Positions 1-15,469 of a DNA stretch of 64,000 nucleotides are shown piece by piece. Each line of letters begins with the position of its first letter. The first letter of the stretch is position 1. A model generated the notes under the pieces. The model was not told the origin of the DNA. It was given only the letters and a program-made list of their open reading frames with translations, and did no database searches. The stretch is from NCBI RefSeq assembly GCF_988242995.1, contig NZ_OZ547043.1. One strand, 5' to 3'. The translations under genes and the position numbers were made by a program.

Positions 1-1962
1 GTAACCGAGCGCTGCCTGGGTGTTGCTATTATTCGGTTCCAGTTCCAGCGCGGCGCGCAAATCACTCACCGCCGCCGGGACATTATGACGTTGGCGATAA
101 ATTGTCGCCCGCGCAACGTAAGCGTTGGCAGAAGGCGCAATATTGATTGAGCGCGTGAGATCGTTCAGTGCGAGTTCCGGCTGACCAGGAATGTAACGTT
201 GCGCATGCAGCCACCAGTAGAGGGCATTGTTTCCCAGCCCACGTTGTTCTGCCTGCTGAAGCCAGCGATCGCGAGCCGCACCATTTCCTGCCGCCTGGGC
301 GGTATTGGCAGCAGCAAGCAGATCCTCATTGCTCATGTCGTGAAGACTGATTTTCTGCCAGGCCGCCAGTGCGGTGGCGTAATCCTCAACCTGATACGCC
401 TGATAGGCTACCGCACGATGTTGCCAGGCGTTCGGTTGTCGTTGTTCGGCCTGAAGCCATGCATACAACGCCACACCGGGTAGCGTGTCCCGATAACACT
501 TTGCCAGACGGTTCCAGGCGGCGGCATCGTAGGAAGGCGACATATCGCCCAGCAAGCGAACTATTGCCGGGCAATTATCTGCAATACCCGGCAACTGACT
601 TTGCCACTGACGTTGCTCCGCCAGCGGTAAGGGTTTCGATAAAATCGCCACCTTCGCCGGCGTTGCCAGGTAAGGATGACTTTCCAGCAGAGACGCCAGT
701 CGCGCCATTAAAGTCTGGCTGACACGCGCATCGCCCTGGAAAGGATAGCGTTGCAGCAATAAATCGGCAGCTTCGCGTGACTGCTCGTTCTGCATCAGTT
801 GCCAGGTCAGTTGATCCAGGCGGGTAAGATTTTCCGGTTCTTGCTGATACAGCAATCGTGCCAGACGCAGAGCTTCAGCCTTGTTATGGGTCGCTACGCT
901 AACGGTATAACGCTCCTCAAGCATTTCATTGGCGGGGAGGGTGGCGAGCAGTTTTTGCGCTGCGTCGTACTGACCTTCTTTTAACAGCACCGGTAGCGTC
1001 GCGCCAACAACATACTGGCGGTTGTCAGCAAACTGTACCGTATAATTCGCCAACGCCTGAACGGGGTTGCCGCTGTATTTAGATAACAGATAGAGCCAAC
1101 TTTTCTCTTGTGCGTCCGTGGTAAATAGCGGCGTATTTTCAATGAGATAACGCTGGAGGCGTGCTTTTTCGTCACGATAAGCCAGCGCGGTCGCGTAAGT
1201 AATATATGACTGCGGATCGGTGAAGATCCCCTGTGATTGCAGCGCCAGGATCCGATCGTCCAGCTGCCCGGCAAGAAGCACATCAAACCACTGGCGGCGT
1301 TCTGCCGCGCTTAATGTGTTCTGCTGGCGTGCTTCATTGTATAGCGTATCTGCCTGGGACCATTGCTTCAGGTAGATTGCCCGTTGCAGCAGATCGGTTC
1401 GCAGCGTTTTTCCTTCCGGCGATGCAGCAAACGTCGCATCGTTCAGTTGCGCTCTGGCGACAGGTAATTGTGCCAGCCGCAGGGCATTCTGCCCAACTTC
1501 ACTGCGACAACGCAGGGTCGGCGCAGCATCGCACGCTTTTTGCTGGGCAAGCAGTTCTTCAACAGTCGTAACGCTTTTCACTTCAACTGGAATAGCCGCC
1601 AGACTGCGCTCAAGTCGGGCATCTCCTGGGTGACGTTTCAGTTGATCCTCAAGCAACAGCCGCGCCCGGTCATCATGACCAAAATGGCGATAGGCTTCCG
1701 CAAGGTATAAAGTTAGCGGAATATTATCCGGCACCTGCTGGTGTATATATTCAAATTCGCGGATGGCGGTTGCTTCGTCGTTATTTTTCTGTGCCTTCAG
1801 CGCCTTGTCGAGACGGGGATAAATAACAAAATGGCGATAATCGCTCAGCCCCAGCTCTTCTGCGCTGGTGCCGATATTGTCTGCGAGTGCGCTGGTACTC
1901 AATAAAGACGTCAGCAGTAAACCAGACCATCCGATGACGCGATTAAGGTTATTCTCCTTCAT
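1..1962 (-). CDS. nfrA: Bacteriophage N4 adsorption protein A (NfrA), TPR outer-membrane protein; N-terminal ~654 codons only, 3' end lies beyond window start
   Basis: Minus-strand ATG at 1960-1962 preceded by AAGGAGAA-type RBS, translating MKENN...; overlaps nfrB stop by 14 bp as in K-12. Not in ORF track because no stop inside window. Confidence 0.85.
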   Translation of the reverse strand, partial: MKENNLNRVIGWSGLLLTSLLSTSALADNIGTSAEELGLSDYRHFVIYPRLDKALKAQKNNDEATAIREFEYIHQQVPDNIPLTLYLAEAYRHFGHDDRARLLLEDQLKRHPGDARLERSLAAIPVEVKSVTTVEELLAQQKACDAAPTLRCRSEVGQNALRLAQLPVARAQLNDATFAASPEGKTLRTDLLQRAIYLKQWSQADTLYNEARQQNTLSAAERRQWFDVLLAGQLDDRILALQSQGIFTDPQSYITYATALAYRDEKARLQRYLIENTPLFTTDAQEKSWLYLLSKYSGNPVQALANYTVQFADNRQYVVGATLPVLLKEGQYDAAQKLLATLPANEMLEERYTVSVATHNKAEALRLARLLYQQEPENLTRLDQLTWQLMQNEQSREAADLLLQRYPFQGDARVSQTLMARLASLLESHPYLATPAKVAILSKPLPLAEQRQWQSQLPGIADNCPAIVRLLGDMSPSYDAAAWNRLAKCYRDTLPGVALYAWLQAEQRQPNAWQHRAVAYQAYQVEDYATALAAWQKISLHDMSNEDLLAAANTAQAAGNGAARDRWLQQAEQRGLGNNALYWWLHAQRYIPGQPELALNDLTRSINIAPSANAYVARATIYRQRHNVPAAVSDLRAALELEPNNSNTQAALGY

Positions 1963-4186
1963 TTTCGGACTCCAGTTGCGCAACCTGTTCTGTGTTTAAA
2001 CCTGCTTTGAGTAATAGTGATTGCATCGAAACTTGTAATTCGCGTTGAATTGTCAGGACGCGATCCAACGTTTCCTGGCTGATAACGCCTTCGGTGACCA
2101 AAAACTTGCCGAGCGGCAGAGAACTACGTTCATGGCGCAATAACAACACGTTAATTGCTGAACGATTAATATGACCGAGTGTGGTCAGTATTTCGGCGAA
2201 CAGGAACTGATGCGGCACATATTGCCGCCAGATTTCACCGGCCTGCTGTTCCGTGAGCCACTGATGCTGAACCGCATTGTACAACATTGCCCGCGGATCG
2301 TGACCGCGTCGGCGCGCATACCAGTGGCGTAACCCCGTGACAATTTGTCCCCGCAGAACAATGACGTAACGCACTTTGCGTCCGACTTTACGCGTCAGGG
2401 CCGCCAGCGAAACCGGGTCAATACCATCTTCACTGCCGACAATTAACTCATCATTTTCCAGACGCAGCGGCAGTACTGCATAATGCAGCGCCACGGAGGC
2501 CGGCATTTCGGCAATCAGTGATGAAGGGATCTGCCAGGCGTCGATCGACTCCCACGCCACGCCGTTTTGCTCTGCCAGCGCCTGTGCCAGCTGTTCGGCG
2601 CTAATCAGCCCCTGCATCAGCATTGAACCGCCCAGGCGTAGACCTTCGACGCGATTACGCAGTGCTGTATCGAGTTGTTCTTCAGTGATGACCTGATTTT
2701 CCAGCAGGATTTGACCTAACGGACGCAACGAGCGGGTATCGCCAGTCACGCTGGGGAAGTCATGCGTTGTTTTATCCCACGCGACACGACGTGGATCGCC
2801 GTGTTGAAGTACCTGTTTTAACGCGCGCCAGTTGGCCATGAAGTTAATCAGGTTGCCCCAGAAAAGACGCAGGACAGATAGCAGCCCCTGCGTCAGGCCG
2901 TAGTAGCCAGTAACGAAAATCACCCGCTGCACGATGCGGTTAATCATCAAGCCAAAGTTTAGCCACAGCAGAGTCATTAACCATGCGCTGCCGCTGAAAA
3001 TAGAAAGGAAATGCCAGGCATCGGGCCACAAACTTTCATACGCCAGCAACAGCAAAAGCTGGATCATCACCAGCATCGCGAGGAAGCTGACAAAGTTACT
3101 GATTGCCCCTTTGCGGTCGCGCCAGAGAAAGTAGTTCAGCGTCAGGCTGGAGGTCCATTTGTGGGTTTTAAAGCCCTGGAAAACAATGCCGATGATCCAG
3201 CGAGATTTTTGTCGAACCGCAGTCGAAAAGGTATCGGGGAAATATTCGCGCACGCAGATCATGTTTGACGTCCGCGCGTGCTGTAAAAATTTACGCTGCT
3301 CGCGTTCTTTGGCTTCGTCCACCACCGGAAAACGGACAAAAATTTCCGTCATACCTTTTTCTTTCAGGCGGAAACCAATGTCGTAATCTTCAGTAAGACT
3401 CTGCACGTCGAAAGCAATACCGTCACCGTCAGCTAACAGTGCGGTCACGGCGCGGCGGCTGAAACAGGTGCCGACGCCTGCGCTGGGCACTTGTCCGGCG
3501 AGGGCTTCACGCACCGGAACATCTTTGCCATGCAGTTCTGAAAACTCATCAATGTAAGTCATGCTGGTGAAGTGCGTCCATTCGCGTTCGAACGGATACA
3601 CCGGGATCTGAATCAGATCTTTACGCTCGACCAGATAGTTGAACAGACGCAATTCCATCGGTGAAATTACGTCTTCGGCGTCATGCAGAATAAAACCAGC
3701 AAAAGCGAAATTGGCGCTACGCTCAAACTGGGTGATGGCGTCCAGCACGTTGTTCAGGCAGTCGGCTTTGCTGGTGGGGCCAGGACGCGCGCAGACTACC
3801 TTATGCACATTCGGGAAGCGAGCGCACACTTCGTCAACATCACGCTGAGTATCGGGGTCGTTGGGGTAGGTGCCAACAAAGATATGATAGTTTTCATAGT
3901 CGAGCGTGGTCGCCGCCAGCTCGGCCATATTGCCGATGACGCCCGTTTCATTCCACGCCGGAACCATAATCGCTAACGGTTTTTCATCTGGTTTATACAG
4001 TTCGCGGTAACTCATTCGCGGGTAGCGGCGATAAACACTCAACTTGCGTTTAATGCGGCGTACCCAGTAGACGACATCAATAAAAAAATCGTCCAGCCCG
4101 CTGATGAACATGATGACCGCTAACGTTATCGCGATTACTTTTAAGCCGTAGAGCCAGGTAGCAAAAACATCAAGAAGCCAGTCCAC
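1949..4186 (-). CDS. nfrB: Bacteriophage N4 adsorption protein B (NfrB), inner-membrane glycosyltransferase, 745 aa
   Basis: ORF track 745 aa, MDWLLDVFATWLYGLK..., full-length match to remembered NfrB; GTG start. Confidence 0.95.
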   Translation of the reverse strand: MDWLLDVFATWLYGLKVIAITLAVIMFISGLDDFFIDVVYWVRRIKRKLSVYRRYPRMSYRELYKPDEKPLAIMVPAWNETGVIGNMAELAATTLDYENYHIFVGTYPNDPDTQRDVDEVCARFPNVHKVVCARPGPTSKADCLNNVLDAITQFERSANFAFAGFILHDAEDVISPMELRLFNYLVERKDLIQIPVYPFEREWTHFTSMTYIDEFSELHGKDVPVREALAGQVPSAGVGTCFSRRAVTALLADGDGIAFDVQSLTEDYDIGFRLKEKGMTEIFVRFPVVDEAKEREQRKFLQHARTSNMICVREYFPDTFSTAVRQKSRWIIGIVFQGFKTHKWTSSLTLNYFLWRDRKGAISNFVSFLAMLVMIQLLLLLAYESLWPDAWHFLSIFSGSAWLMTLLWLNFGLMINRIVQRVIFVTGYYGLTQGLLSVLRLFWGNLINFMANWRALKQVLQHGDPRRVAWDKTTHDFPSVTGDTRSLRPLGQILLENQVITEEQLDTALRNRVEGLRLGGSMLMQGLISAEQLAQALAEQNGVAWESIDAWQIPSSLIAEMPASVALHYAVLPLRLENDELIVGSEDGIDPVSLAALTRKVGRKVRYVIVLRGQIVTGLRHWYARRRGHDPRAMLYNAVQHQWLTEQQAGEIWRQYVPHQFLFAEILTTLGHINRSAINVLLLRHERSSLPLGKFLVTEGVISQETLDRVLTIQRELQVSMQSLLLKAGLNTEQVAQLESENEGE

Positions 4187-4373
4187 ACAAAAACCTTACA
4201 TTAACGCTGGTTATGTTTAGGGTGGCGTATATTAAGGTTTTTTATGAATTGTGACAGCTTTTTACCATTAATAGGTATGACTATTGCGGCACGTTATTTT
4301 TACACTGGTTATAAAAGTTGCCGTTTGCGTAGAATGTAGACAAAAGCGTGGTGTCAAGGAGGGGAGGTTAACG

Positions 4374-5663
4374 CAGGGCAAGATTACGAAAGCCCGCTCC
4401 CCGCAAGGACTGACGCGAGATAGTTTCTGCCCATGGCTGCTTTTCGCATCTTACGTCTTAACCCTGCCTTGAATATCTTATCATTCGTTAAAATATTAAT
4501 AGCGATGTGCCGTATCCCTGAATATAATTCTGCGGCGTTTCCTCTTCTTATTTTGCAGTCGTCTTCATTCATTACCACGTCCAGACGCCAGTGCAGCTTA
4601 TTCTCCACGTGCCAGTGGTTTCGGATTGCTGTGGCGAACTTCTCTGCGGTTAAATCAGCAGAACTGATATAATATCTGACCGTCATTTCTGGCTCTTTCT
4701 TTTGTTCTGCTATTATTGACCGAAAGGAGACTGCCACACATAATTTCTTCAGTCCTTTCCATTCAAACGTGAAATCAATAAGTTCATCAGGGACATCGCA
4801 AACAATATGAAGACGGATTTCTTCTCTGCCGTGACTCTTTTCACTAATGGCGTAACTGTCATGCTCTGGATTATTTAATTCTTTCAGTGGAAATTTTTCC
4901 TCAAAGGCTTTATTAAGCCGCCCCTGGTTTCCTTTTACAGCGAATAAATAATCACCGCCCTGTTTTTGTATCTTCTCTGCAATATCTTTCTGGCAACCCA
5001 TCGCATCAGTTGTGATGATTTTTCCTTTAATATACAGCATGTTAAGAAGTTCTGGGATAGCTGTAATCTCATTAGATTTCTCATCCGTTCTGATCTGTCC
5101 GATGACCAGACTGTGCATTGTTGAGAACGCACTAATGACATGAATCGCTCCCCTGCGGCGACTCTTGTCATAAGAATGCCGGAGTGTTTTTCCATCGATT
5201 GCAATAACGTCTTTATCATCTGAAGTATGGCAATCTCGCATCCAGTTAATAAAGCACTCGTGAAATTTTGAAGGACTGATACAGGATACAACTCTGGCGA
5301 TGGTATCGTGAACAGGAATACCATTTTCAAAATCACCATATTGTTTTAAAAAATCGAGATGTGTTTCCCCAAAATCCTCTATATCTTCCCAACCTTCTGC
5401 ACCAGAAATAACGGCACAAATAGTCAACAGTAGAATATCCGATAATTTATGTTCCACTTTCCAGGCTTGTCTGTAATCGGGGATAATAGAAATATGCTCC
5501 ATCAATTTTTTAAGTTCCATTTTGTTCTCCTTAATTATGTAAGGAGTATTTGATCATGTATAAGCAATAAAAACAGCTTTAGGTAATGAGGAATATCTCA
5601 ATTTTTAAACATAAAATGCGAATTATTTAGTACAAAAAAGCAGCGTTACGTGATCTTTCCCTG
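4374..5663 (-). mobile_element. ISAs1-family insertion sequence (H-repeat / ISEc1-like), ~1.29 kb
   Basis: Contains H-repeat transposase ORF; imperfect terminal inverted repeats beginning CAGGG (left CAGGGCAAGATTACG near 4374, right ...ATCTTTCCCTG ending near 5663). Boundaries approximate. Confidence 0.6.
4384..5520 (-). CDS. ISAs1-family transposase (H-repeat-associated protein, YhhI-like), 378 aa
   Basis: ORF track [32 protein letters not shown]..., characteristic of Rhs-associated H-rpt proteins; strong AAGGAGA RBS upstream. Confidence 0.9.
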
Positions 5664-5743
5664 GTGTACTTCTGATGATCTTTCCCTGGGTTAAACAGGT
5701 GGTGAAGGGAATGAAGAATGGGATATCCGGCGTATTACGCGAG

Positions 5744-5780
5744 GTATAAAAATAAAAGCCGGGAGATTGTCACTCCCGGC
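5744..5780 (-). terminator. Rho-independent terminator downstream of the Rhs immunity gene (hairpin GCCGGGAGATTGTCACTCCCGGC flanked by T-runs on both strands)
   Basis: Perfect GC-rich inverted repeat at ~5758-5780 with T-run on the minus strand immediately after. Confidence 0.5.
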
Positions 5781-5786
5781 AACATA

Positions 5787-6068
5787 TTATTTTTTTATTT
5801 CATTATATCTGATAAAAAAAGTATTTAGTGCATCATGTTCATCTTGTGAGAACAATAAAATAATTTTATCCCATGAATGTCCTGTTACTCCATAATAGTC
5901 TTCAATATAAGATTGAAGCCTTATTAATATCTCAATATTGACGATTTCTTTTGGCTCTCTCATTTGCCATCCATCCAGGAAAGCTTTTAACGCCGATATG
6001 GTATGCCTGCTTAAATATAAAGCTGGTCTTTTTTCTATCATATCAATCAGTTTAACAATATCATTCAT
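5787..6068 (-). CDS. Putative Rhs immunity protein (RhsI-like), 93 aa, no recognised family
   Basis: Small ORF starting 2 bp after the rhs stop, AT-rich like the rhs 3' toxin-encoding end; this position is canonical for the cognate immunity gene. Function by position only. Confidence 0.55.
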   Translation of the reverse strand: MNDIVKLIDMIEKRPALYLSRHTISALKAFLDGWQMREPKEIVNIEILIRLQSYIEDYYGVTGHSWDKIILLFSQDEHDALNTFFIRYNEIKK

Positions 6069-6070
6069 AA

Positions 6071-9000
6071 TTAAAACCTTGATGGAGTAATGGTGTATTC
6101 GCCAGGAGAGTATATATCATTCAGCCAATCTTCATACTTTATACCAGAAGGATTCATATTATCAAAAACTGTATCACCTACTTTTATTGCTTCATGATGA
6201 CCATTAGTTGCTATATTTTTACCTATTCTATCACTCCATATATTGCCAAAGGCGCCTTGTTTATTTTTAGTTTCGAGTATGAGATGCTCACCATTTACCC
6301 CAGCTTGTTGCATTTTACTTTTTAACGCTGCGGCAAATTTATCGCATTGAAAAAGCTGTTTAAACTTATCACTTATTGTTGTTGCAAGATCCCTTGTTTT
6401 TGCGATATCGCAAATGGTTAATCCTAATGGATCAATATAACCAAGGGGATTATGAACATATGCATAATTGTTTATCCCGCCTCTCAGCCCTATCGGATCA
6501 CTCACCAGGTACATCCCGGTTTCCGGCTCGTAATACCGGAACCGGTTATAGCACAGCCCGGATTCCGCATCCTGCCACTGTCCTGCATACAGCAGGCCGG
6601 GGTCGGCTTCCGGGTCCAGCTCCCCACGCGGGTCCGGGTAGCCGGTGTCTGCGGGCAGGCTGAGTGCCAGCCCCCACAGGCTGGTCTGTCCCGGTCGCCA
6701 GACGGTTTTACCTTCACTGTTAAAGAGCATCAGCGGCCGGCCCGTCAGGTCGCTCACCGCATGATTCGTCCGCGTCACCCACTGCGGGGCCACGGACGGA
6801 TGCGCCTGCCGTACCCGGCTGCACTGCTGGCTTATCAGCTCAAAGCCGTTAAACACCAGGTGCCGCACACTGTACAGTTTATCATCGCGGTATTCCCGGA
6901 TTTCCGCAATACTGTCGCCATCCCACAGGTACGTAAAACGGATTTTCTTCCGGTCGCAGCGTTTCTCTGTTCGTCTGCCGCTGGCATCGTGGCGGTATTC
7001 CCACTGTTCACCCTGTGCGCTGCAATACCCGGTCAGCTGGTCCCGGCTGTCCCACCGGAACCGCTCTGTTTCCGGGCGGTAACCGTCACGGTGTCTGGTG
7101 CGGCTGACCATCCGGCCTGCGGCGTCATAGTCATACTGCGTGTTTCCGGCCTGTTTCAGCCGGTGGCCTCCGGCATACTGGTCAGTCTCTTCACTTATCC
7201 GGTGCCTGCCCGCAGACTGCGCCTTCAGGTAGCCGCAGCTGTCATAGCCATAAGTCTCATCGCCTTCGCCATAGCCCAGCCCGGTGCCTGAGGCTGTCAC
7301 CGCCGTGACCTGGCCGTTCCGGTCCAGCCGGTACTCCCGCCGTGTTTCCCGTCCGTAGTCTTCCCGGCTGGTGACAGCCGACACATTACCCGCGCTGTCG
7401 TAACGGTACTCCCGCACCAGTGAGGGGAGCAGCCCGCCCCATGTGGCTTCCGCCGGGAAAAATCCGGCGCGCTGGCTGACAGCCTGACCGGCTGCATTCC
7501 AGCCCTGCTCACAGGCAAAACCCCGGTTACTGTGCCGGAGCACTTCACGTCCTGCCTCATCACGGCTGAACGTCAGCGTCTCATCCCCCGGCAGGATAAC
7601 CTCCGTCAGTTCTCCGGCGGCGTTGTAGCGGTAGGTGGTTTTCAGCAGGGATTCACCGGGGTGTCTGTCGCGTTCATCTTCCGGTGGCAGGATACAGCGG
7701 ATGACGGTGTGTTCATCGGGGTGGTGGTATTCAATGGCCCGTCGGCCCTGAGTGGTGACATTCACCCGGCCGCGTTCGTCATAGCCGGTGCGCTGTGATG
7801 TGCCGTCCGGGCTGAAGATACCCGTCAGCCTGCCGGATTTGTCATACGCATACTGCGTTTTGCCTTCCGGCGTGATGACTTCTGCCAGGCGGCCTGCGGC
7901 GTCCCGGCTGTAGAGGATAGTTTCCTCCAGGCCGTTGACCCTGGCGGTACACAGGCCATCGGCGTCATAGCGGTAACGCCAGACCACGCCGCCCCAGTCA
8001 CGCTCTTCCGTCACCCGGCCGCAGTTATCCAGAACATAAAGATATGACTCACCCTGCGGATTGATGACTTCTGTCAGTTGCAGCGTGTCTTTATCGTAGC
8101 GGTACTGCCAGCGGTGGCCTTCACCGTCCGTTCGCGCCACCGGCAAATCAAACGGGCCGTACTCCATTGTCCAGACAACGCCATTGCCGTCCGTCCAGGC
8201 CAGCAGGTTGCCGTGGCGGTCGTTGCGGAATCCTTCCGCGCCGGTTCCAGTGCGCTCAAGGCCGCTCAGTTTATGGTGCTGCTGCCACTGCAACCGCACT
8301 GACTGACCGCCGGGGCCGCGCATCTTCACCGGCAGGTCGTGACCACTGTATTTGGTGTGGTGTTCGCGGCCCATCACGTCGGTGAGTGTTTCCGGCCGGT
8401 TGTGGCGGTCGTACTCTATGCCCAGACGCCGTTCATCCTGGCGGAATATCCCCGACAGCAGCCCCTGAGCGGTGTATGCCAGCCGGGTCTCTTCGCCCTG
8501 TGGCGACACCTGACTTACCGGCAGGCCGCGTTCATCACACTGCTGTGTCCACGTCTGCCCGGCAGGGTCGGTGATGTTGCTGAGCAGGCCGCGCTCATCA
8601 TAGCGGTACAGCCACTCCGCGCCGTCTGCCGCCGTGTAACGGCTTAACTGACCGAGTGCGGCGTTGTCTTCAAATTTCTCCACCCGCCCGGCAGGGGAGT
8701 GGCGGGCCAGCAGGTGATGGAATTCATCCCATTCATACGTGGTGGTACTGCCGTCCGGCGCGTCTTCCCGCAGGATATTGCCGTCAGGATCATAGTAATA
8801 ACGGTGAATGCCCTTGCCGTCCGTCACGGTGGTGCAGCCGTCCCCATAGTCCAGCGTGGCGTTGTAATAGCCCTCCGCCCCGGTGACGGTCACGCACCGG
8901 CCCTGTGTATCGTAGGTGAAACGGCTCCACGTCTGGTCGTTATCGGACCAGCGGATGATCCGGTCCGCATCGTCGTACTCATAAAACAGGTGGTAGTCCA

Positions 9001-10735
9001 GCCGCGCATCCGCTTCTGTCAGCCGCCCCCGCGCATCCTGTTCGTAGGTCGCCAGCGTCTGTATGCCGTTATCCGTGCGGTGAATGGCTTTCAGGTAGCC
9101 GCTGGCGTGGTACGTCAGTTTAAGCCGGATCCCGTCAGTGTGACTGACACCTGTGATCCGGTACTGGCTGTCGCGCTCAAACGTGATGCGGTTGCTGGCG
9201 GTGTCGCTCATCCCGCCCAGCATGTACATCCGGTCTGCGGGGCTGTGTGCCAGACGGTCATCGCTGGTATCGTCAGTCACCGGGTGGCGCAGACGCATTC
9301 CCGGAAAGGCGTCATAAAAGAAGCGGCTGCTCAGTGCATCCCTGTCGAACAGCTCCAGGTAATCATCGCGGCGGCGCAGAATGTACTGGGCGTGATACGG
9401 GTTAACCGCCGTATCACTGTCACCGTCGAAGGCAAATCTCAGCGTGGTTCCCTGGCTGATGATATCCACCCGGTTTCCCTGTTCACGCACCCAGGCGTAT
9501 TCGCTCCAGGAGTCGCTCCAGCCCACGCCCGTCAGGCCATGCAGTGGCAGTACAGAACTGTGGAAACGGGTGAAGGAGAGGGGGAGTGTCTGGCCCAGCG
9601 TAAAGTCGGTACGTTCGTCGCAGTATGCGCCGGTTACCGGATCGACAGGATCTGTTACCCATCTGATGACTTTATTGGCAATACTTTTTAACGACTTACC
9701 TGTTTTCCCCAGCAACGCGCCGAGCTTTGCCCCCAGCAGCTTCCCGCTTTTCCCCAGCAGGTTTCCCAGTTTGCCGAGTCTCGCCAGATTCTTCAGTTTT
9801 CCCAGCAGTCCCGCTGGCGGCAGAAGATAGCTGGCTATCGTTATTCCCCCCAGGATCATTCTCTGCCACGGCGGGAACTCCGGCTGGATATCCAGATAGG
9901 TGACCTGCTCACCCCCAATAAAGACGTCCGGCGAACCTTCCACGATTGCCGCACTGCACTCCAGTTTGTCCCCCTTGCGTGCAGCAGGCTGATTGTTGAT
10001 AAAGACGTTGCTGCTGCCCTGGGCTATCCTCGGCGGTTTGTTCTCCTTGTCGCAGAGCGCCGTGTCCTCACCGGCTTCCGGGAAATCCACGTCTTTTTTG
10101 ATTTCGCCACGCCCGCCCACCATGGTGGCAAACTCCATTAATACCGGACCGGCGGGAAACAGAAGCGATGCGCCGGCGCTGACGCGATCCATAATACCGG
10201 CATTGCTGTCCGTCAGGGTGATAACAGCGTTCCCCCAGGCCTTCGCCAGTGGTACTGCTTTTTCCGCTGCCGATTCAAGCAGGTCAGTGGCAATATCCCC
10301 CCATGAAGGTTCCCCCTGTGGTAGAGAGGGTATTGCTTCAGTCAGGGGAGGAGGGGGAAGGGTGACGGCGGCCCTGGCAGCGGGCTTTCCGTTAATTTTT
10401 ACATTTTTAGAACCAGTATTGATGGCCCCGTCCTTGTCACAAAAGCTGTTTATCCATGACTCAAGCTGGTTCTGTTTCTCCTCCACATAATCACTCGCCT
10501 TATAGCTGGCATACATCAGCGCAGGCACCAGAACCAGCGCATAAGGGCCGGTGGCGCAGGCGGCCATAATCAGGCAACCTTCTGCGATAGTTACTATCGC
10601 CCCCAGCACGGCCCCTGCCAGTGCCCCCAGAAAACTTTTATGCTGAATTTCATCGTCCAGTCTGGCGGCAGGTGGGCCGGACTTCTTTGCTGCCAGCATC
10701 TCTGCAATGGCTTTGTCGTTGGCTGCCCGTTTCAT
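6071..10735 (-). CDS. rhs: Rhs-family T6SS effector: N-terminal prePAAR motif ([10 protein letters not shown]) and transmembrane segment, PAAR domain, YD-repeat core, DPxGL cleavage motif, unrecognised 115-aa C-terminal toxin domain; 1554 aa
   Basis: ORF track 1554 aa; repeated YD/RYxYD motifs, PAAR motifs, ...[27 protein letters not shown] near C-terminus. Start could instead be Met13 (about 10699). Confidence 0.9.
   Translation of the reverse strand: [1554 protein letters not shown]
6074..6418 (-). other. Variable C-terminal toxin domain of the Rhs protein (residues after DPLGL), AT-rich, family not recognised
   Basis: Base composition shifts from the GC-rich rhs core to AT-rich downstream of the DPxGL motif, typical of displaceable Rhs-CT/immunity cassettes. 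Confidence 0.7.
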
Positions 10736-10800
10736 CTAGCTGGCGACCATCGCCCGCTGCGACTGCATTCGCATTGCCAGCGTACCGCCTGCGGTCGCTC

Positions 10801-10886
10801 CCTGTGGCCCGCTCTGTCCTTCGCTCATTGGTTTTATCCCTGTGGCCCGCTCTGTCCTTCGCTCATTGGTTTTATCCCTGTGTCTG
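10801..10886. repeat. Direct tandem repeat, 38-bp unit CCTGTGGCCCGCTCTGTCCTTCGCTCATTGGTTTTATC x2 plus partial third copy, in the eagR-rhs intergenic region
   Basis: Read directly from sequence at 10801-10838 and 10839-10876, then CCTGTG. Confidence 0.85.
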
Positions 10887-11348
10887 TCAGCGCGGCTGGT
10901 CCTGTTTGATATTCTTCTCCGGCGGTAATGGTGTGAAGCTCTTTATCACATCGAGCAGCATCGTCTTTTGACTGTTCTTAAGGGGTAAAGACGTACTGAA
11001 CGTGAAGGTCAGCAGCGTATCACCACGCCGCTGAAATACGGCTATCTGGCTAATCCGCCCCTGATTCCCTTCATCTTCCGGACCGTTCCAGGAATAATCC
11101 AGCAGCCAGGCCGGGGCCTCTGCCAGAGTGATTTCCCGGCAGGCATGTTCGGTGTAACCGTCCAGCTTGCCCTGGTACAGCGCCAGCGTTTCCTTGTACA
11201 GTTCTGGTGTCAGGGTTCCCTGTGGAACGGGTTCGCGGGTAATGACCAGGTTGATGCCACTGTTATCTGTGGACACCAGGACCTGCATTGACTGATCCTG
11301 CCATTGCGATGGCAGCTGAATATGACCTTCATTAAAAGTGAACTGCAT
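10887..11348 (-). CDS. DUF1795-family (EagR-like) effector-associated chaperone, 153 aa
   Basis: ORF MQFTFNEGHIQLPSQWQDQSMQVLVSTDNSGINLVITREP... lying between vgrG and a prePAAR Rhs effector; AGGGAG RBS. Confidence 0.75.
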   Translation of the reverse strand: MQFTFNEGHIQLPSQWQDQSMQVLVSTDNSGINLVITREPVPQGTLTPELYKETLALYQGKLDGYTEHACREITLAEAPAWLLDYSWNGPEDEGNQGRISQIAVFQRRGDTLLTFTFSTSLPLKNSQKTMLLDVIKSFTPLPPEKNIKQDQPR

Positions 11349-11375
11349 AAAATACTCCCTGATAATTTGAATGAA

Positions 11376-13277
11376 TCAGTTAATGAAAACAGAACCGCCC
11401 ACGATGGTGATGCCATCCTTCGACAGCCTGATTACCGTCGATTCCCCGACCTGTAGCTGAATGCCATCCGGCGTCAGCGCAATTTTGCTTTCCTCCACGG
11501 CCAGCATAATTTGCTTAATTGCCGTATAAGCCTGTATACCGTCGCCTTCGCCACCATTGTTTACAGCGTCAACATGCACTGAACCGGCAATCGTGCCTCT
11601 GTCCTGAAAAACATCCTCAGATAAAGACCCTTTTAGTACGCCTGTGATTTTGTGGCCTTTTTCCACCGTAAGAAGGCGGTTACCTTCCTGGATCGTGACC
11701 GTCTGGTCATTTTTTACGGTTTCGCGGTGATCGTGTTTTACGGTGGTGGTACGGTCGTTGAGTACCTCGGTATCCATGTTCTTCTGGGCGTGGATGTAGA
11801 CCTGTTCTTTCCCTGTCGCATCGTCAAACTTCAGCTCGTTAAACCCGCTGCCCATATATGTTTTGGAGCGGATGGTCATCTGCGTCTTCGTTCCCGGCAG
11901 GCTGCCCGGCGAGCGGTTATCTTCGTGGTAGGTGCGCCCCATAATGATCGGCTGGTCCGGATCGCCGTTGAGGAAGTCCACAATGACCTCCTGACCCACA
12001 CGCGGTATCGCCAGATTGCCGAACCCGGCTCCTGCCCACGCCTGTGCCACACGGATCCAGCACGAACTGTCCTGGTCTGCCGGGTTATAGCGGTCCCAGT
12101 TGAATTTCACCCGCACCCGGCCATGCTCGTCGCAGAAGATTTCCTCTCCCGCAGGCCCCGTCACGACGGCGCTCTGTGGACCGTCCACTGACGGCTTTGG
12201 CTTCGGCTGTGGCCGCCACGTCCGGTCTGCCGGGATTACCACAAACTGGTTCTCCAGCGCCGTCCCCGCGCCCCGCCGTCCCGGCACCGCCTGCGGCTGT
12301 TCGCCGTGCAGTTCGCTCGCCACCACCTGCCATTCCCGGTTCAGGTTCGCCTGCGGATGCTCCGTCAGCACAATTCGCCGTCCCGGCCATATCTCCGGCG
12401 AGCGGCTCATTCCCCGCGCGGTTTCTGCGTTGTTTCGCCAGCCGTCCATCTGCCAGCGGGCAAAGTTCTGCCCGTGGGCGCTCTTGAAACGCCCGGGGTA
12501 GTCATACACTTCATACTGCGTGCGCTGGTAGTCCTGGTGCTGGCCTTCCTGTTCAAAACGTCCGGCCCAGCCGGGGCGTTTAAAGGTGTAGTCTTTGGTC
12601 ACCACGGAAGAAGGGCGGATTTGTGCGCTGTAGCGGAACTGGCTGATGCAGAGGGTGCTCACCTCGGTACGGGTGTTCGGGTTCCATGGGATTTCAAAAG
12701 ATTCGGGCAGATGGCGGACTGTGTCGCACAGCACCAGGCTCTGGTCGGTACTTTTGTAAGCATGCTCCTCATAAAAGAAGATGCCTTCCTCCGCCGCCAT
12801 CCGGCACAGGAAATCGTAATCAGTCTCACCGTACTGGACACAAAACTCACGGGAAGGATGCGGCTCGCTGAACAGCGGACTCCATTCGGTCACCCCGTTT
12901 TCCTGCAACATCGTGCCGAGGATGCTTCTGATGTCCTCGTTCTGGAAGATACGGAAGTTCTGACGCAGTCCTGCCCGCCACAGCGGCGGGCGCACCTTCA
13001 TGCTGTACAGCATCTGGTTTTTGTCGTTCTCCCCGAGTTCAAACCAGGTCACCACGCCTTTCACCCGGCGCTGTACGTCATCGCCCTGCCATACCGTCAG
13101 GTAGGCCATTTTGTCCAGCACCTGCGCAAATTCAAGGTAGAGAAACTGCTGACTGACCAGAGAAAGGTCAAGGGAAAAAAGTGAAGAGAGTGACTGGGTG
13201 AGATGAAAGGAGACCACCGCAAAAGCGTCCGGTGGCAGGCCGTCCACTTCCAGTGTGAAACGTAATCCGGTTGACAT
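11376..13277 (-). CDS. vgrG: Type VI secretion system spike protein VgrG (Rhs-element Vgr protein), 633 aa
   Basis: ORF track translation contains MSTGLRFTLEVDGLPPDAF... ending ...KDGITIVGGSVFIN; start moved to Met13 (ATG at 13277 with GGAGG RBS). Confidence 0.9.
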   Translation of the reverse strand: MSTGLRFTLEVDGLPPDAFAVVSFHLTQSLSSLFSLDLSLVSQQFLYLEFAQVLDKMAYLTVWQGDDVQRRVKGVVTWFELGENDKNQMLYSMKVRPPLWRAGLRQNFRIFQNEDIRSILGTMLQENGVTEWSPLFSEPHPSREFCVQYGETDYDFLCRMAAEEGIFFYEEHAYKSTDQSLVLCDTVRHLPESFEIPWNPNTRTEVSTLCISQFRYSAQIRPSSVVTKDYTFKRPGWAGRFEQEGQHQDYQRTQYEVYDYPGRFKSAHGQNFARWQMDGWRNNAETARGMSRSPEIWPGRRIVLTEHPQANLNREWQVVASELHGEQPQAVPGRRGAGTALENQFVVIPADRTWRPQPKPKPSVDGPQSAVVTGPAGEEIFCDEHGRVRVKFNWDRYNPADQDSSCWIRVAQAWAGAGFGNLAIPRVGQEVIVDFLNGDPDQPIIMGRTYHEDNRSPGSLPGTKTQMTIRSKTYMGSGFNELKFDDATGKEQVYIHAQKNMDTEVLNDRTTTVKHDHRETVKNDQTVTIQEGNRLLTVEKGHKITGVLKGSLSEDVFQDRGTIAGSVHVDAVNNGGEGDGIQAYTAIKQIMLAVEESKIALTPDGIQLQVGESTVIRLSKDGITIVGGSVFIN

Positions 13278-14020
13278 AGCAACCTCCGTGAAAATGAATA
13301 ATAATCCGCACATATTGCATGTACAACATGTCGGGTAATGAGATAAGCGGGCCGGCTTCAGGTGTTACCGGGGAATATCAGAAAAGTGTCATGGTTATGT
13401 GAGAATTTTGTCCGGGATTTTACTTCAGAGAAACGGGGGTCTGTTGAGTCAACAAAATAATCACAAACTCAACTGACGGGTTCACGATGTTATTAAGGAC
13501 AGGCTCGTATATTACATCGAGTAACAAAAAAACACCTGATATGCAAAGTTAAACCAATATTCATAATGTCTTTTTATTCACAGTAATAAATAATTCAATA
13601 AACATCATTGAAATGAATGATGGTTTGTATAAGGAATATACGCTACCGCCCCACCCTGATAACATGATCTGCACATTGCCATCTTAACGTCGTTAGACGC
13701 TGGCTTAATAGTGAATATTTTAAATTAGGAATTTATCAAATCCACTTGATAAATAGATTGTGTGAATAATATAGAGATTAATGATGCCTGACTGCGCTTT
13801 ATATTATAGCCGATTCTTTTATAGTGATGAAAATTTAGTAATAGCATTGTGCTCTACAATTGGTAGAAACACGAATTTGATTAAATTGCATATCTAAATA
13901 TCTCGTAAATATCCGAAAATGAATAACCTTCGATTTCAGACGACCAATAAGGTCTTCCCTGTTTTATTGATAAATAATAACAGAAGGCGATACATCACTC
14001 TTTGAGTTTGAACTAACTAA

Positions 14021-15469
14021 TTAACCTTTCTCCGGTAGTTTGATCATAAACCTTGTTCCCCGCGCATCTGACGTTACCGCAACCGTGCCTTTATGCGCGA
14101 CAACAATTGATTTCACTATCGCCAGGCCAATGCCGCTACCTTCGCCTTTTCGCTGGCGGGAAGGATCAACGCGGTAGAAACGGTCAAACAATCGCGGTAA
14201 GTGTTCGGGCGCAATGGGCGTACCGGGGTTTTCGACGGAAACTTGCACCTGGTGATCGACCGTCTGGCAGCGCACAACAATTGCCTCTCCGGGTGGCGTA
14301 TAACGCAGGGCGTTCGAAAGCAGGTTGCTTAACGCCCGACGCAGCATCAGCGGATCGCCCGCAACCTGACACTCGTCACCAACAAACCGCAACTCCACGC
14401 CGCGATCTTCCGCTAACGCCTCGAAAAAATCGAACACTTTGCCGACTTCATCCGCCAGGTTGAGCATTTTCTTTTCGGGGATTAACTGGTTGTTATCGGC
14501 CTGGGCGAGAAACAACATATCGCTGACCATTTTCGCCATTCGCGTCAGCTCTTCGAGATTAGAGTAGAGCACATCTTCCAGCTCCTTCTGGCTGCGTGAC
14601 TGGCTGAGGGCGATTTCGGTTTGCGTTATGAGATTCGTAATTGGTGTACGAATTTCGTGAGCGATATCCGCTGAGAAATTGGACTGGCGAGTAAAGACAT
14701 CCTCAATACGCTCGATCATATGGTTGAACGACAGTACCAGCTGTTCCAGCTCAATCGGCACGGTCTGCGGGTCAAGGCGAACGTCGAGATCTTTCGAGGT
14801 GATATTCTGGATTTGACGGCTGACGCTGCGGATCGGCGCGTGACCTTTATGTACCGCCAATAGCACGATAAAGACGATCAGGATGCTGATGATCGATGCG
14901 GTCATAATAAGTTTATTCATCAAATCATTTATGTAATGAAGATGAAAATCGATCGAAAGCGCGATGTAGAGCGTATAAATCGGTTTGCCGTCCACCAACG
15001 GGCCAACCGGCAAGTTAATCATCCGCCAGTTGCTGTGTTCCATATGCCCGTGACCGTGGCCCGGCATCATCATTGTCGGGCCGGAAAGGAGATACACCTC
15101 GCCGCCCCGCGCGTCTTTATCGGGTATGGCATCACGTGCAAACTCGCGGATATCGGGCGCACCGGGGGAGTGATATACCGTTTTACCGTGGCTATCTGCC
15201 AGGGAGATCAACACATTGGAATAACCACTGACAATATCTTCCAGCGTCATTAAGCGTCGGGCTTGCGTTTCGTCAGGGTGATTAAGTACCCGTTCAAGTG
15301 TGGCGCTAATTTCTTTTAAATCATTAATATCCTGCTCGGCAAAATGCACTTTTACCGAGTGGATCATTATCCATGCAAAGGCGAAAAACGCCGCGATGGT
15401 GGCGAGGCTGATAAAAAAGGTCAGGCGGGTTGCCAGCGAAAACGGGCGCTGAAATGGCTTACTGACCAT
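14021..15469 (-). CDS. cusS: Copper/silver sensor histidine kinase CusS
   Basis: ORF track match to CusS; start set at [16 protein letters not shown] (ATG at 15469), overlapping cusR 3' end by 11 bp. Confidence 0.95.

Follow-up and report, generated by a model that had tools for sequence, protein, structure and literature searches.

In EHEC EDL933, vgrG, a DcrB gene and rhs lie in this order between cusS and nfrB, at a locus described as orphan vgrG-2 or vgrG1 (Z0700-Z0707; PMC12981562, PMC5363993, PMC7216683). When the promoter of EHEC vgrG1 (Z0707) was replaced, VgrG1 and RhsF protein were still absent (PMC13141884). The main T6SS of EHEC is repressed by H-NS (PMC13141884, PMC5363993), and in its cluster the hcp3-vgrG3 intergenic regulatory region, h3R, limits VgrG production (PMC13141884). 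E. coli K-12 carries a spacer between yncH and rhsE (36% GC) that has been published as bound by H-NS, by the RpoD holoenzyme in vitro and weakly by PhoB. Its H-NS-bound intervals are 1527544-1527631 and 1527686-1527787 (PMC8894471, Supplementary Data 3), coordinates that were assigned to U00096.3 by matching to other H-NS-flagged sites of PMC10294691. The spacer is also flagged as H-NS-bound in PMC10294691 (Table 1); the H-NS calls of these two papers share one ChIP-seq data set, E-MTAB-332. Independently, genomic SELEX found that the yncH>rhsE spacer binds the RpoD holoenzyme and H-NS in vitro (PMC3946193). The PhoB ChIP-seq peak in the K-12 spacer is weak, with the lowest ChIP score, and most such sites were deemed inert (PMC10294691).

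We analysed a 743-bp tract (13278..14020, minus strand) that runs from the vgrG start to the cusS stop in a 64-kb stretch of E. coli DNA, hereafter the window. The tract shares its locus and gene order with EDL933 vgrG-2/vgrG1, but O157 and most other strains have a common allele that is 74-81% identical to the window in the vgrG-proximal leader and 74% identical in the part specific to the cus locus. In O157 genomes the tract matches at only two places, a number that equals the known orphan vgrG loci (cus and vgrE). Like the K-12 spacer the tract is AT-rich, and its vgrG-proximal ~440 bp (13344-13784) are 88.7% identical to that spacer; unlike the window, K-12 lacks vgrG, owing to a deletion that begins 31 bp before the ATG and extends into the rhs core, and its spacer sits at another chromosomal locus with an outer flank that differs beyond 13785. 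The same deletion made K-12 rhsE a pseudogene, in which the H-NS-bound leader now abuts a truncated rhs (comparison locus L002, 3960-4003). The tract resembles h3R in being non-coding and immediately upstream of a vgrG, and h3R belongs to an H-NS-repressed system, but we detected no sequence similarity between the two, and h3R has a predicted terminator, which the tract lacks. As in H-NS xenogeneic silencing (PMC8894471), the tract is AT-rich island DNA dense in promoter-like sites on both strands, with an H-NS-bound homolog; binding and silencing at the window copy are proposed by homology. Our best explanation, to which we assign a probability of roughly 0.7, is that this piece of island DNA forms the 5' control region of the orphan vgrG-eagR-rhs operon, non-coding and silenced by H-NS. 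New here are the three-layer origin of the tract, the exact junctions of the island, the link to the K-12 binding data and a 37-nt core.

Position and composition of the tract

Pfam matches and RefSeq annotation in relatives place nfrB at 1949-4186, an ISAs1/H-rpt transposase at 4384-5520, a prePAAR-PAAR-Rhs protein with a Tox-PL-2 toxin end at 6071-10735, a DcrB/DUF1795 (EagR-type) protein at 10887-11348 and cusS, cusR and cusCFBA beyond the tract. The first gene downstream of the tract is vgrG (11376..13277, minus strand), which encodes 633 aa with Phage_GPD, Phage_base_V and Gp5_trimer_C domains; its ATG start at 13277 (minus) is consistent with RefSeq, and an alternative in-frame ATG at 13313 is lost in the common allele through a 10-nt deletion. 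A 93-aa ORF after rhs (5787-6068) is the immunity candidate. The locus holds the parts expected of an orphan vgrG-Rhs island: vgrG, a DUF1795/DcrB chaperone, PAAR-Rhs with a toxin end, an immunity ORF and H-rpt/ISAs1. Such a vgrG-eagR-rhs island occupies the nfrB-cusS site in ~45% of E. coli genomes.

Homology to the island-less E. coli E22, in which the nfrB-cusS gap is 149 bp, runs to 4328 and resumes at 14034, so the island comprises 4329-14033 (9.7 kb) between nfrB and cusS and the entire tract is island DNA. The first-pass annotation had proposed that the tract may mark the right-hand island junction and that a comparative alignment could locate it. Our alignment with E22 puts the left junction at 4328/4329 and the right one at 14033/14034, within the last cusS codons; the tract adjoins this junction, but the break itself lies 13 bp past its end. 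These final 13 bp of the island (14021-14033), which begin with the cusS stop codon (14021-14023), make up the last four codons and stop of cusS (compared with L004, 5987-6000). CusS ends in LPEKG or LPERE with the island and in LPA without it. A search of the island ends for direct repeats, an att site, a tRNA and an integrase found none.

With 34.6% GC, the tract stands apart from the window (52.4%), vgrG (57.4%) and cusS (51.7%); its AT content is 65.4% versus 47.6% for the window, and it ranks second for AT-richness among 743-bp stretches of the 64 kb (lowest 1% of such stretches by GC). The initial description of a strongly AT-rich region between the vgrG start and the cusS 3' end, free of any ORF of at least 60 aa, holds in all three respects, down to the exact coordinates. 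Stop-free runs in the tract reach at most 44 codons, whereas shuffles give 67 +/- 15. The anatomy of the tract, its homologies and junctions, and the absence of a coding or RNA-structure signal are direct observations. We rejected a pseudogene remnant, as neither of the two additional genes present in the Jnd12-type island (see below) gave a tblastn match in the tract. No similarity to phages or true plasmids was found, the plasmid matches being chromosomal fragments that carry a plasmid label. Within the window, AT content peaks at 5501-6243 (32% GC), a stretch that spans the tip of the Rhs toxin, the immunity ORF and the end of ISAs1; in it a partial IS end is duplicated (TGATCTTTCCCTGG, at 5651 and at 5676).

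Elsewhere in the island, the 5' end of rhs appears damaged (10735-10886). There the ribosome-binding site and the first codons occur twice, owing to a perfect tandem duplication of 38 bp (10799-10836 and 10837-10874), and codon 31 is TAG in the window versus CAG in strain GF43. The long ORF consequently restarts at the ATG at 10735, minus 31 N-terminal residues, and keeps the prePAAR motif. Strain ECONIH5 (L005, 5861-9667) carries a degraded cus island, in which a deletion has joined the 5' part of rhs to nfrB; this fusion is annotated as one 3807-bp 'nrfB' CDS.

Three layers and exchange between loci

On sequence comparison, the tract is built of three layers of different origin, which were missed when it was read as one piece. 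The vgrG-proximal layer (13278..13636, minus strand) is a leader specific to this type of vgrG. Copies at the vgrE/rhsE locus match it at 85-98% identity and the common cus-locus allele at only 74-81%, and other cargo types lack it; the last 30 nt of the leader, upstream of the ATG, are 90-100% conserved. Next to it lies a conserved module of ~150 bp (13637..13785, minus strand) that also occurs at the ansP locus. The outer layer (13786..14033, minus strand; ~32% GC, 31.8% over 13785-14020) is confined to the cus locus. We found this cus-specific segment in 2418 of 5426 genomes, in ~90-100 of them as the window type and in 2328 as a 74%-identical type.

At the yncH/ansP locus (RhsE element), the sequence that precedes vgrE is 88-92% identical to the first two layers together (13278-13784), and the rhsE-locus homology stops at the outer edge of the module (~13785). 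Since the leader of the window clusters with the rhsE-type copies and not with the common cus allele, exchange between the cus and rhsE loci is evident. Copies at the cus and rhsE loci of different strains share up to 100% identity in the 5' kilobase of vgrG, a pattern that, from the sequence alignments, indicates gene conversion between the two orphan loci. [quoted passage not shown]

The module (13637-13785) recurs at 73-78% identity at the ansP locus upstream of unrelated cargo. It occurs in E. coli, in E. albertii (there too at the ansP locus) and in one Escherichia sp.; genome-collection scans for the tract outside Escherichia gave no match, with E. albertii and the one Escherichia sp. 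as the only further hosts. The cargo behind the module is an HExxH protein with a lipoprotein and a distant vgrG (L006 and L010), a PAAR/DUF2169 set (L012), small unknown genes (L013) or an ISAs1 copy (L007). In the Jnd12-type ansP island (L006, 5397-6280), a 176-aa HExxH (zincin-like) protein and a 118-aa lipoprotein lie between the module and the distant vgrG and are likely an effector-immunity pair. An alignment of all module copies reveals a near-invariant core of 37 nt, GTGCAGATCATGTTATCAGGGTGGGGCGGTAGCGTAT (13638..13674, minus strand), which forms the final conserved bases before the cargo-specific sequence, with full divergence just beyond. The module also contains a perfect, conserved 8-bp inverted repeat, TTTATCAA-N6-TTGATAAA (13732..13753), that overlaps TTGATAAATT.

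The simplest reading of these alignments is that the module represents the conserved flank of the ansP variable locus, copied with vgrG to the cus locus. We consider it rather unlikely that core and module form a dedicated cis-element instead of a passive flank, be it a cargo-exchange point, an operator or a recombination/ISAs1 target. The core may serve as a target for ISAs1 or as the endpoint of a deletion. In two unrelated genomes, the ends of ISAs1/H-rpt (CAGGGAAAGATCACG...) are found either right at the core or 7 nt beyond it (L007, 5111-5140; L012, 4038-4080). A second copy of the core is absent from every locus compared. We likewise rejected att sites or terminal inverted repeats at the two ends of the island, the likeness of the left junction to the core being matched by 25% of shuffles.

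Silencing, promoters and rival explanations

The two K-12 H-NS-bound intervals have clear counterparts in the tract: 1527544-1527631 corresponds to 13620..13707 (97% identity) and 1527686-1527787 to 13461..13565 (89% identity). These data come from a paralog without vgrG and reach the first two layers, not the cus-specific 248 bp. The sequence TTGATAAATT (13730-13739) is one mismatch from the H-NS high-affinity motif TCGATAAATT; the window has 11 such one-mismatch sites versus 4 expected, one of them in the conserved inverted repeat. The tract also has two features of H-NS-silenced acquired DNA, namely high AT over several hundred bp and absence from E22. The first-pass annotation had named the tract, by composition, a likely target of H-NS-type silencing; this claim now has a bound, 88.7%-identical K-12 spacer behind it (PMC8894471, PMC10294691, PMC3946193), and extends to the window copy by homology. 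Because the K-12 paralog spacer is bound by both H-NS and sigma-70 RNA polymerase, we infer H-NS binding and promoter activity at this copy as well. Most probably, H-NS coats the tract and keeps it silent.

Promoter activity of the tract is plausible, and the tract holds several candidate sites. The best-scoring sigma-70 candidate is TTCATC-17-TATAAT (13803..13831, minus strand; predicted start near 13796), which reads TTCATC-17-TATCAT in the common cus allele. Another, TTATCA-16-TATATT (13635..13662, minus strand; predicted start near 13628), is kept in the three vgrG alleles but not in other cargo types, and the better vgrG-sense candidates include a third predicted start near 13291. No candidate is conserved across all alleles and cargo types; each is shared by subsets of alleles. 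A predicted K-12 promoter, TTGACT-17-TATTAC, is degraded to TTAACT-20-TGTTAC in the window. Counted on both strands, promoter-like sites reach 35 per kb in the tract and 7 per kb in the window, a fivefold difference explained by base composition, because composition alone predicts such a frequency: the tract has 28 sites of at least 7 bits versus 23 +/- 5.6 in same-composition shuffles. The earlier proposal that the tract carries the island promoter thus draws support from sigma-70 holoenzyme binding to the K-12 copy in vitro, but not from the number of promoter-like sites, which is as expected from composition.

Consensus scans of the tract for sigma-54, Fur, CRP, IHF, Fis, FNR, Lrp and CusR sites were all at chance, and only a Pho box rose above it. 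This Pho-box-like site, TATCAGAAAAGTGTCATG (13376..13393, plus strand), differs at one position from the site under the PhoB ChIP-seq peak in the K-12 paralog and matches the consensus at 14/18 positions, a level reached by 4% of shuffles. We rejected a sigma-54 T6SS promoter (TGGCAC-N5-TTGCW), for which the best tract sites have 2-3 mismatches and lack the GG, with window matches below chance. The FlhDC SELEX peak of the K-12 spacer was also set aside, as it falls outside the shared element.

An improbable alternative is that the tract has no promoter of its own and that vgrG-eagR-rhs is read through from the copper-induced cusRS, the tract serving as a spacer or Rho-termination zone that sets the level of read-through. 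The two genes cusS and vgrG are co-oriented and 743 bp apart, and a search of both strands found no intrinsic terminator after cusS, nor, on the sense strand, any GC-rich hairpin with a U-run; part of the vgrG transcription could therefore originate at cusRS. Stretches rich in C and poor in G (C/G ~2) at 13344-13463 are possible Rho loading sites. However, the same leader and module precede vgrE at the ansP locus, where no cus operon is nearby, RNA polymerase holoenzyme binds the K-12 copy by itself in vitro, and a 743-bp untranslated, H-NS-bound stretch would be expected to end transcripts. Somewhat less improbable, though still doubtful, is a vgrG-proximal part that acts mainly post-transcriptionally, with CsrA or a small RNA blocking vgrG translation at the leader or its GGA motifs, much as Pseudomonas orphan vgrG genes are blocked by RsmA. 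Such a leader-mediated block, for example by CsrA at GGA, is possible because the EHEC vgrG1 promoter swap yielded no protein, for which its authors suggest post-transcriptional repression (PMC13141884). The final 30 conserved nucleotides point the same way. One GGA lies in the Shine-Dalgarno sequence GGAGG (13283..13287, minus strand), 5 nt before the vgrG ATG, and a second at ~13308-13310 could form a CsrA-type site; these motifs, in GCGGAU and CACGGAGG, are ~20 nt apart and kept in all three alleles. GGA is not a specific signal, however, because any GGAGG ribosome-binding site includes it. The putative leader does not fold significantly better than shuffles (z = -0.98 and -0.20), and a local hairpin at 13300-13330 is lost in the common allele via the 10-nt deletion.

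It is highly improbable that the tract hides a small gene, whether for a small protein, a small RNA or a cis-regulatory RNA. The tract does contain several ORFs of 20-40 codons and a 50-nt block conserved far above its surroundings. Against a small protein gene, no ORF of at least 20 aa survives in all alleles: a frameshift, a stop or the loss of the start disrupts each of them in one or more of the divergent alleles. A riboswitch, cis-regulatory RNA or small RNA was rejected on the lack of an Rfam match, stable fold or covariation in the tract: an Rfam scan of 12500-14800 returned only noise (a single match, E = 0.52), folding of the module alignment gave -3 kcal/mol with no compensatory pairs or covariation, and a terminator is absent.

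Working model and meaning

We therefore return to the island-borne, H-NS-silenced control region as the preferred reading. Here, the AT-rich DNA would offer many sigma-70 promoter-like sites on both strands, and coating by H-NS would hold vgrG-rhs transcription low and suppress spurious initiation. Transcripts from the better candidates would carry an untranslated leader of ~350-520 nt that ends in the strong GGAGG ribosome-binding site. The leader (13278-13636) travels together with this vgrG type, the 150-bp module would have been copied alongside vgrG from the conserved ansP-locus flank to the cus locus, and the cus-specific segment in addition supplies the rewritten last four codons of cusS.

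If the core and module were a dedicated cis-element after all, the module would mark a fixed cargo-exchange point at the Escherichia ansP hot spot, later carried to cus, for cargo such as vgrG-rhs, PAAR/DUF2169, HExxH effector pairs and small genes; if they were an operator, a regulator of orphan T6SS cargo would bind the core or module. In the preferred reading, the tract is probably the ordinary AT-rich non-coding control region of an already known orphan vgrG-rhs island, and its significance beyond annotation is slight: exact limits are now set for the nfrB-cusS vgrG-rhs island, and the island is shown to rewrite the C-terminal residues of CusS.
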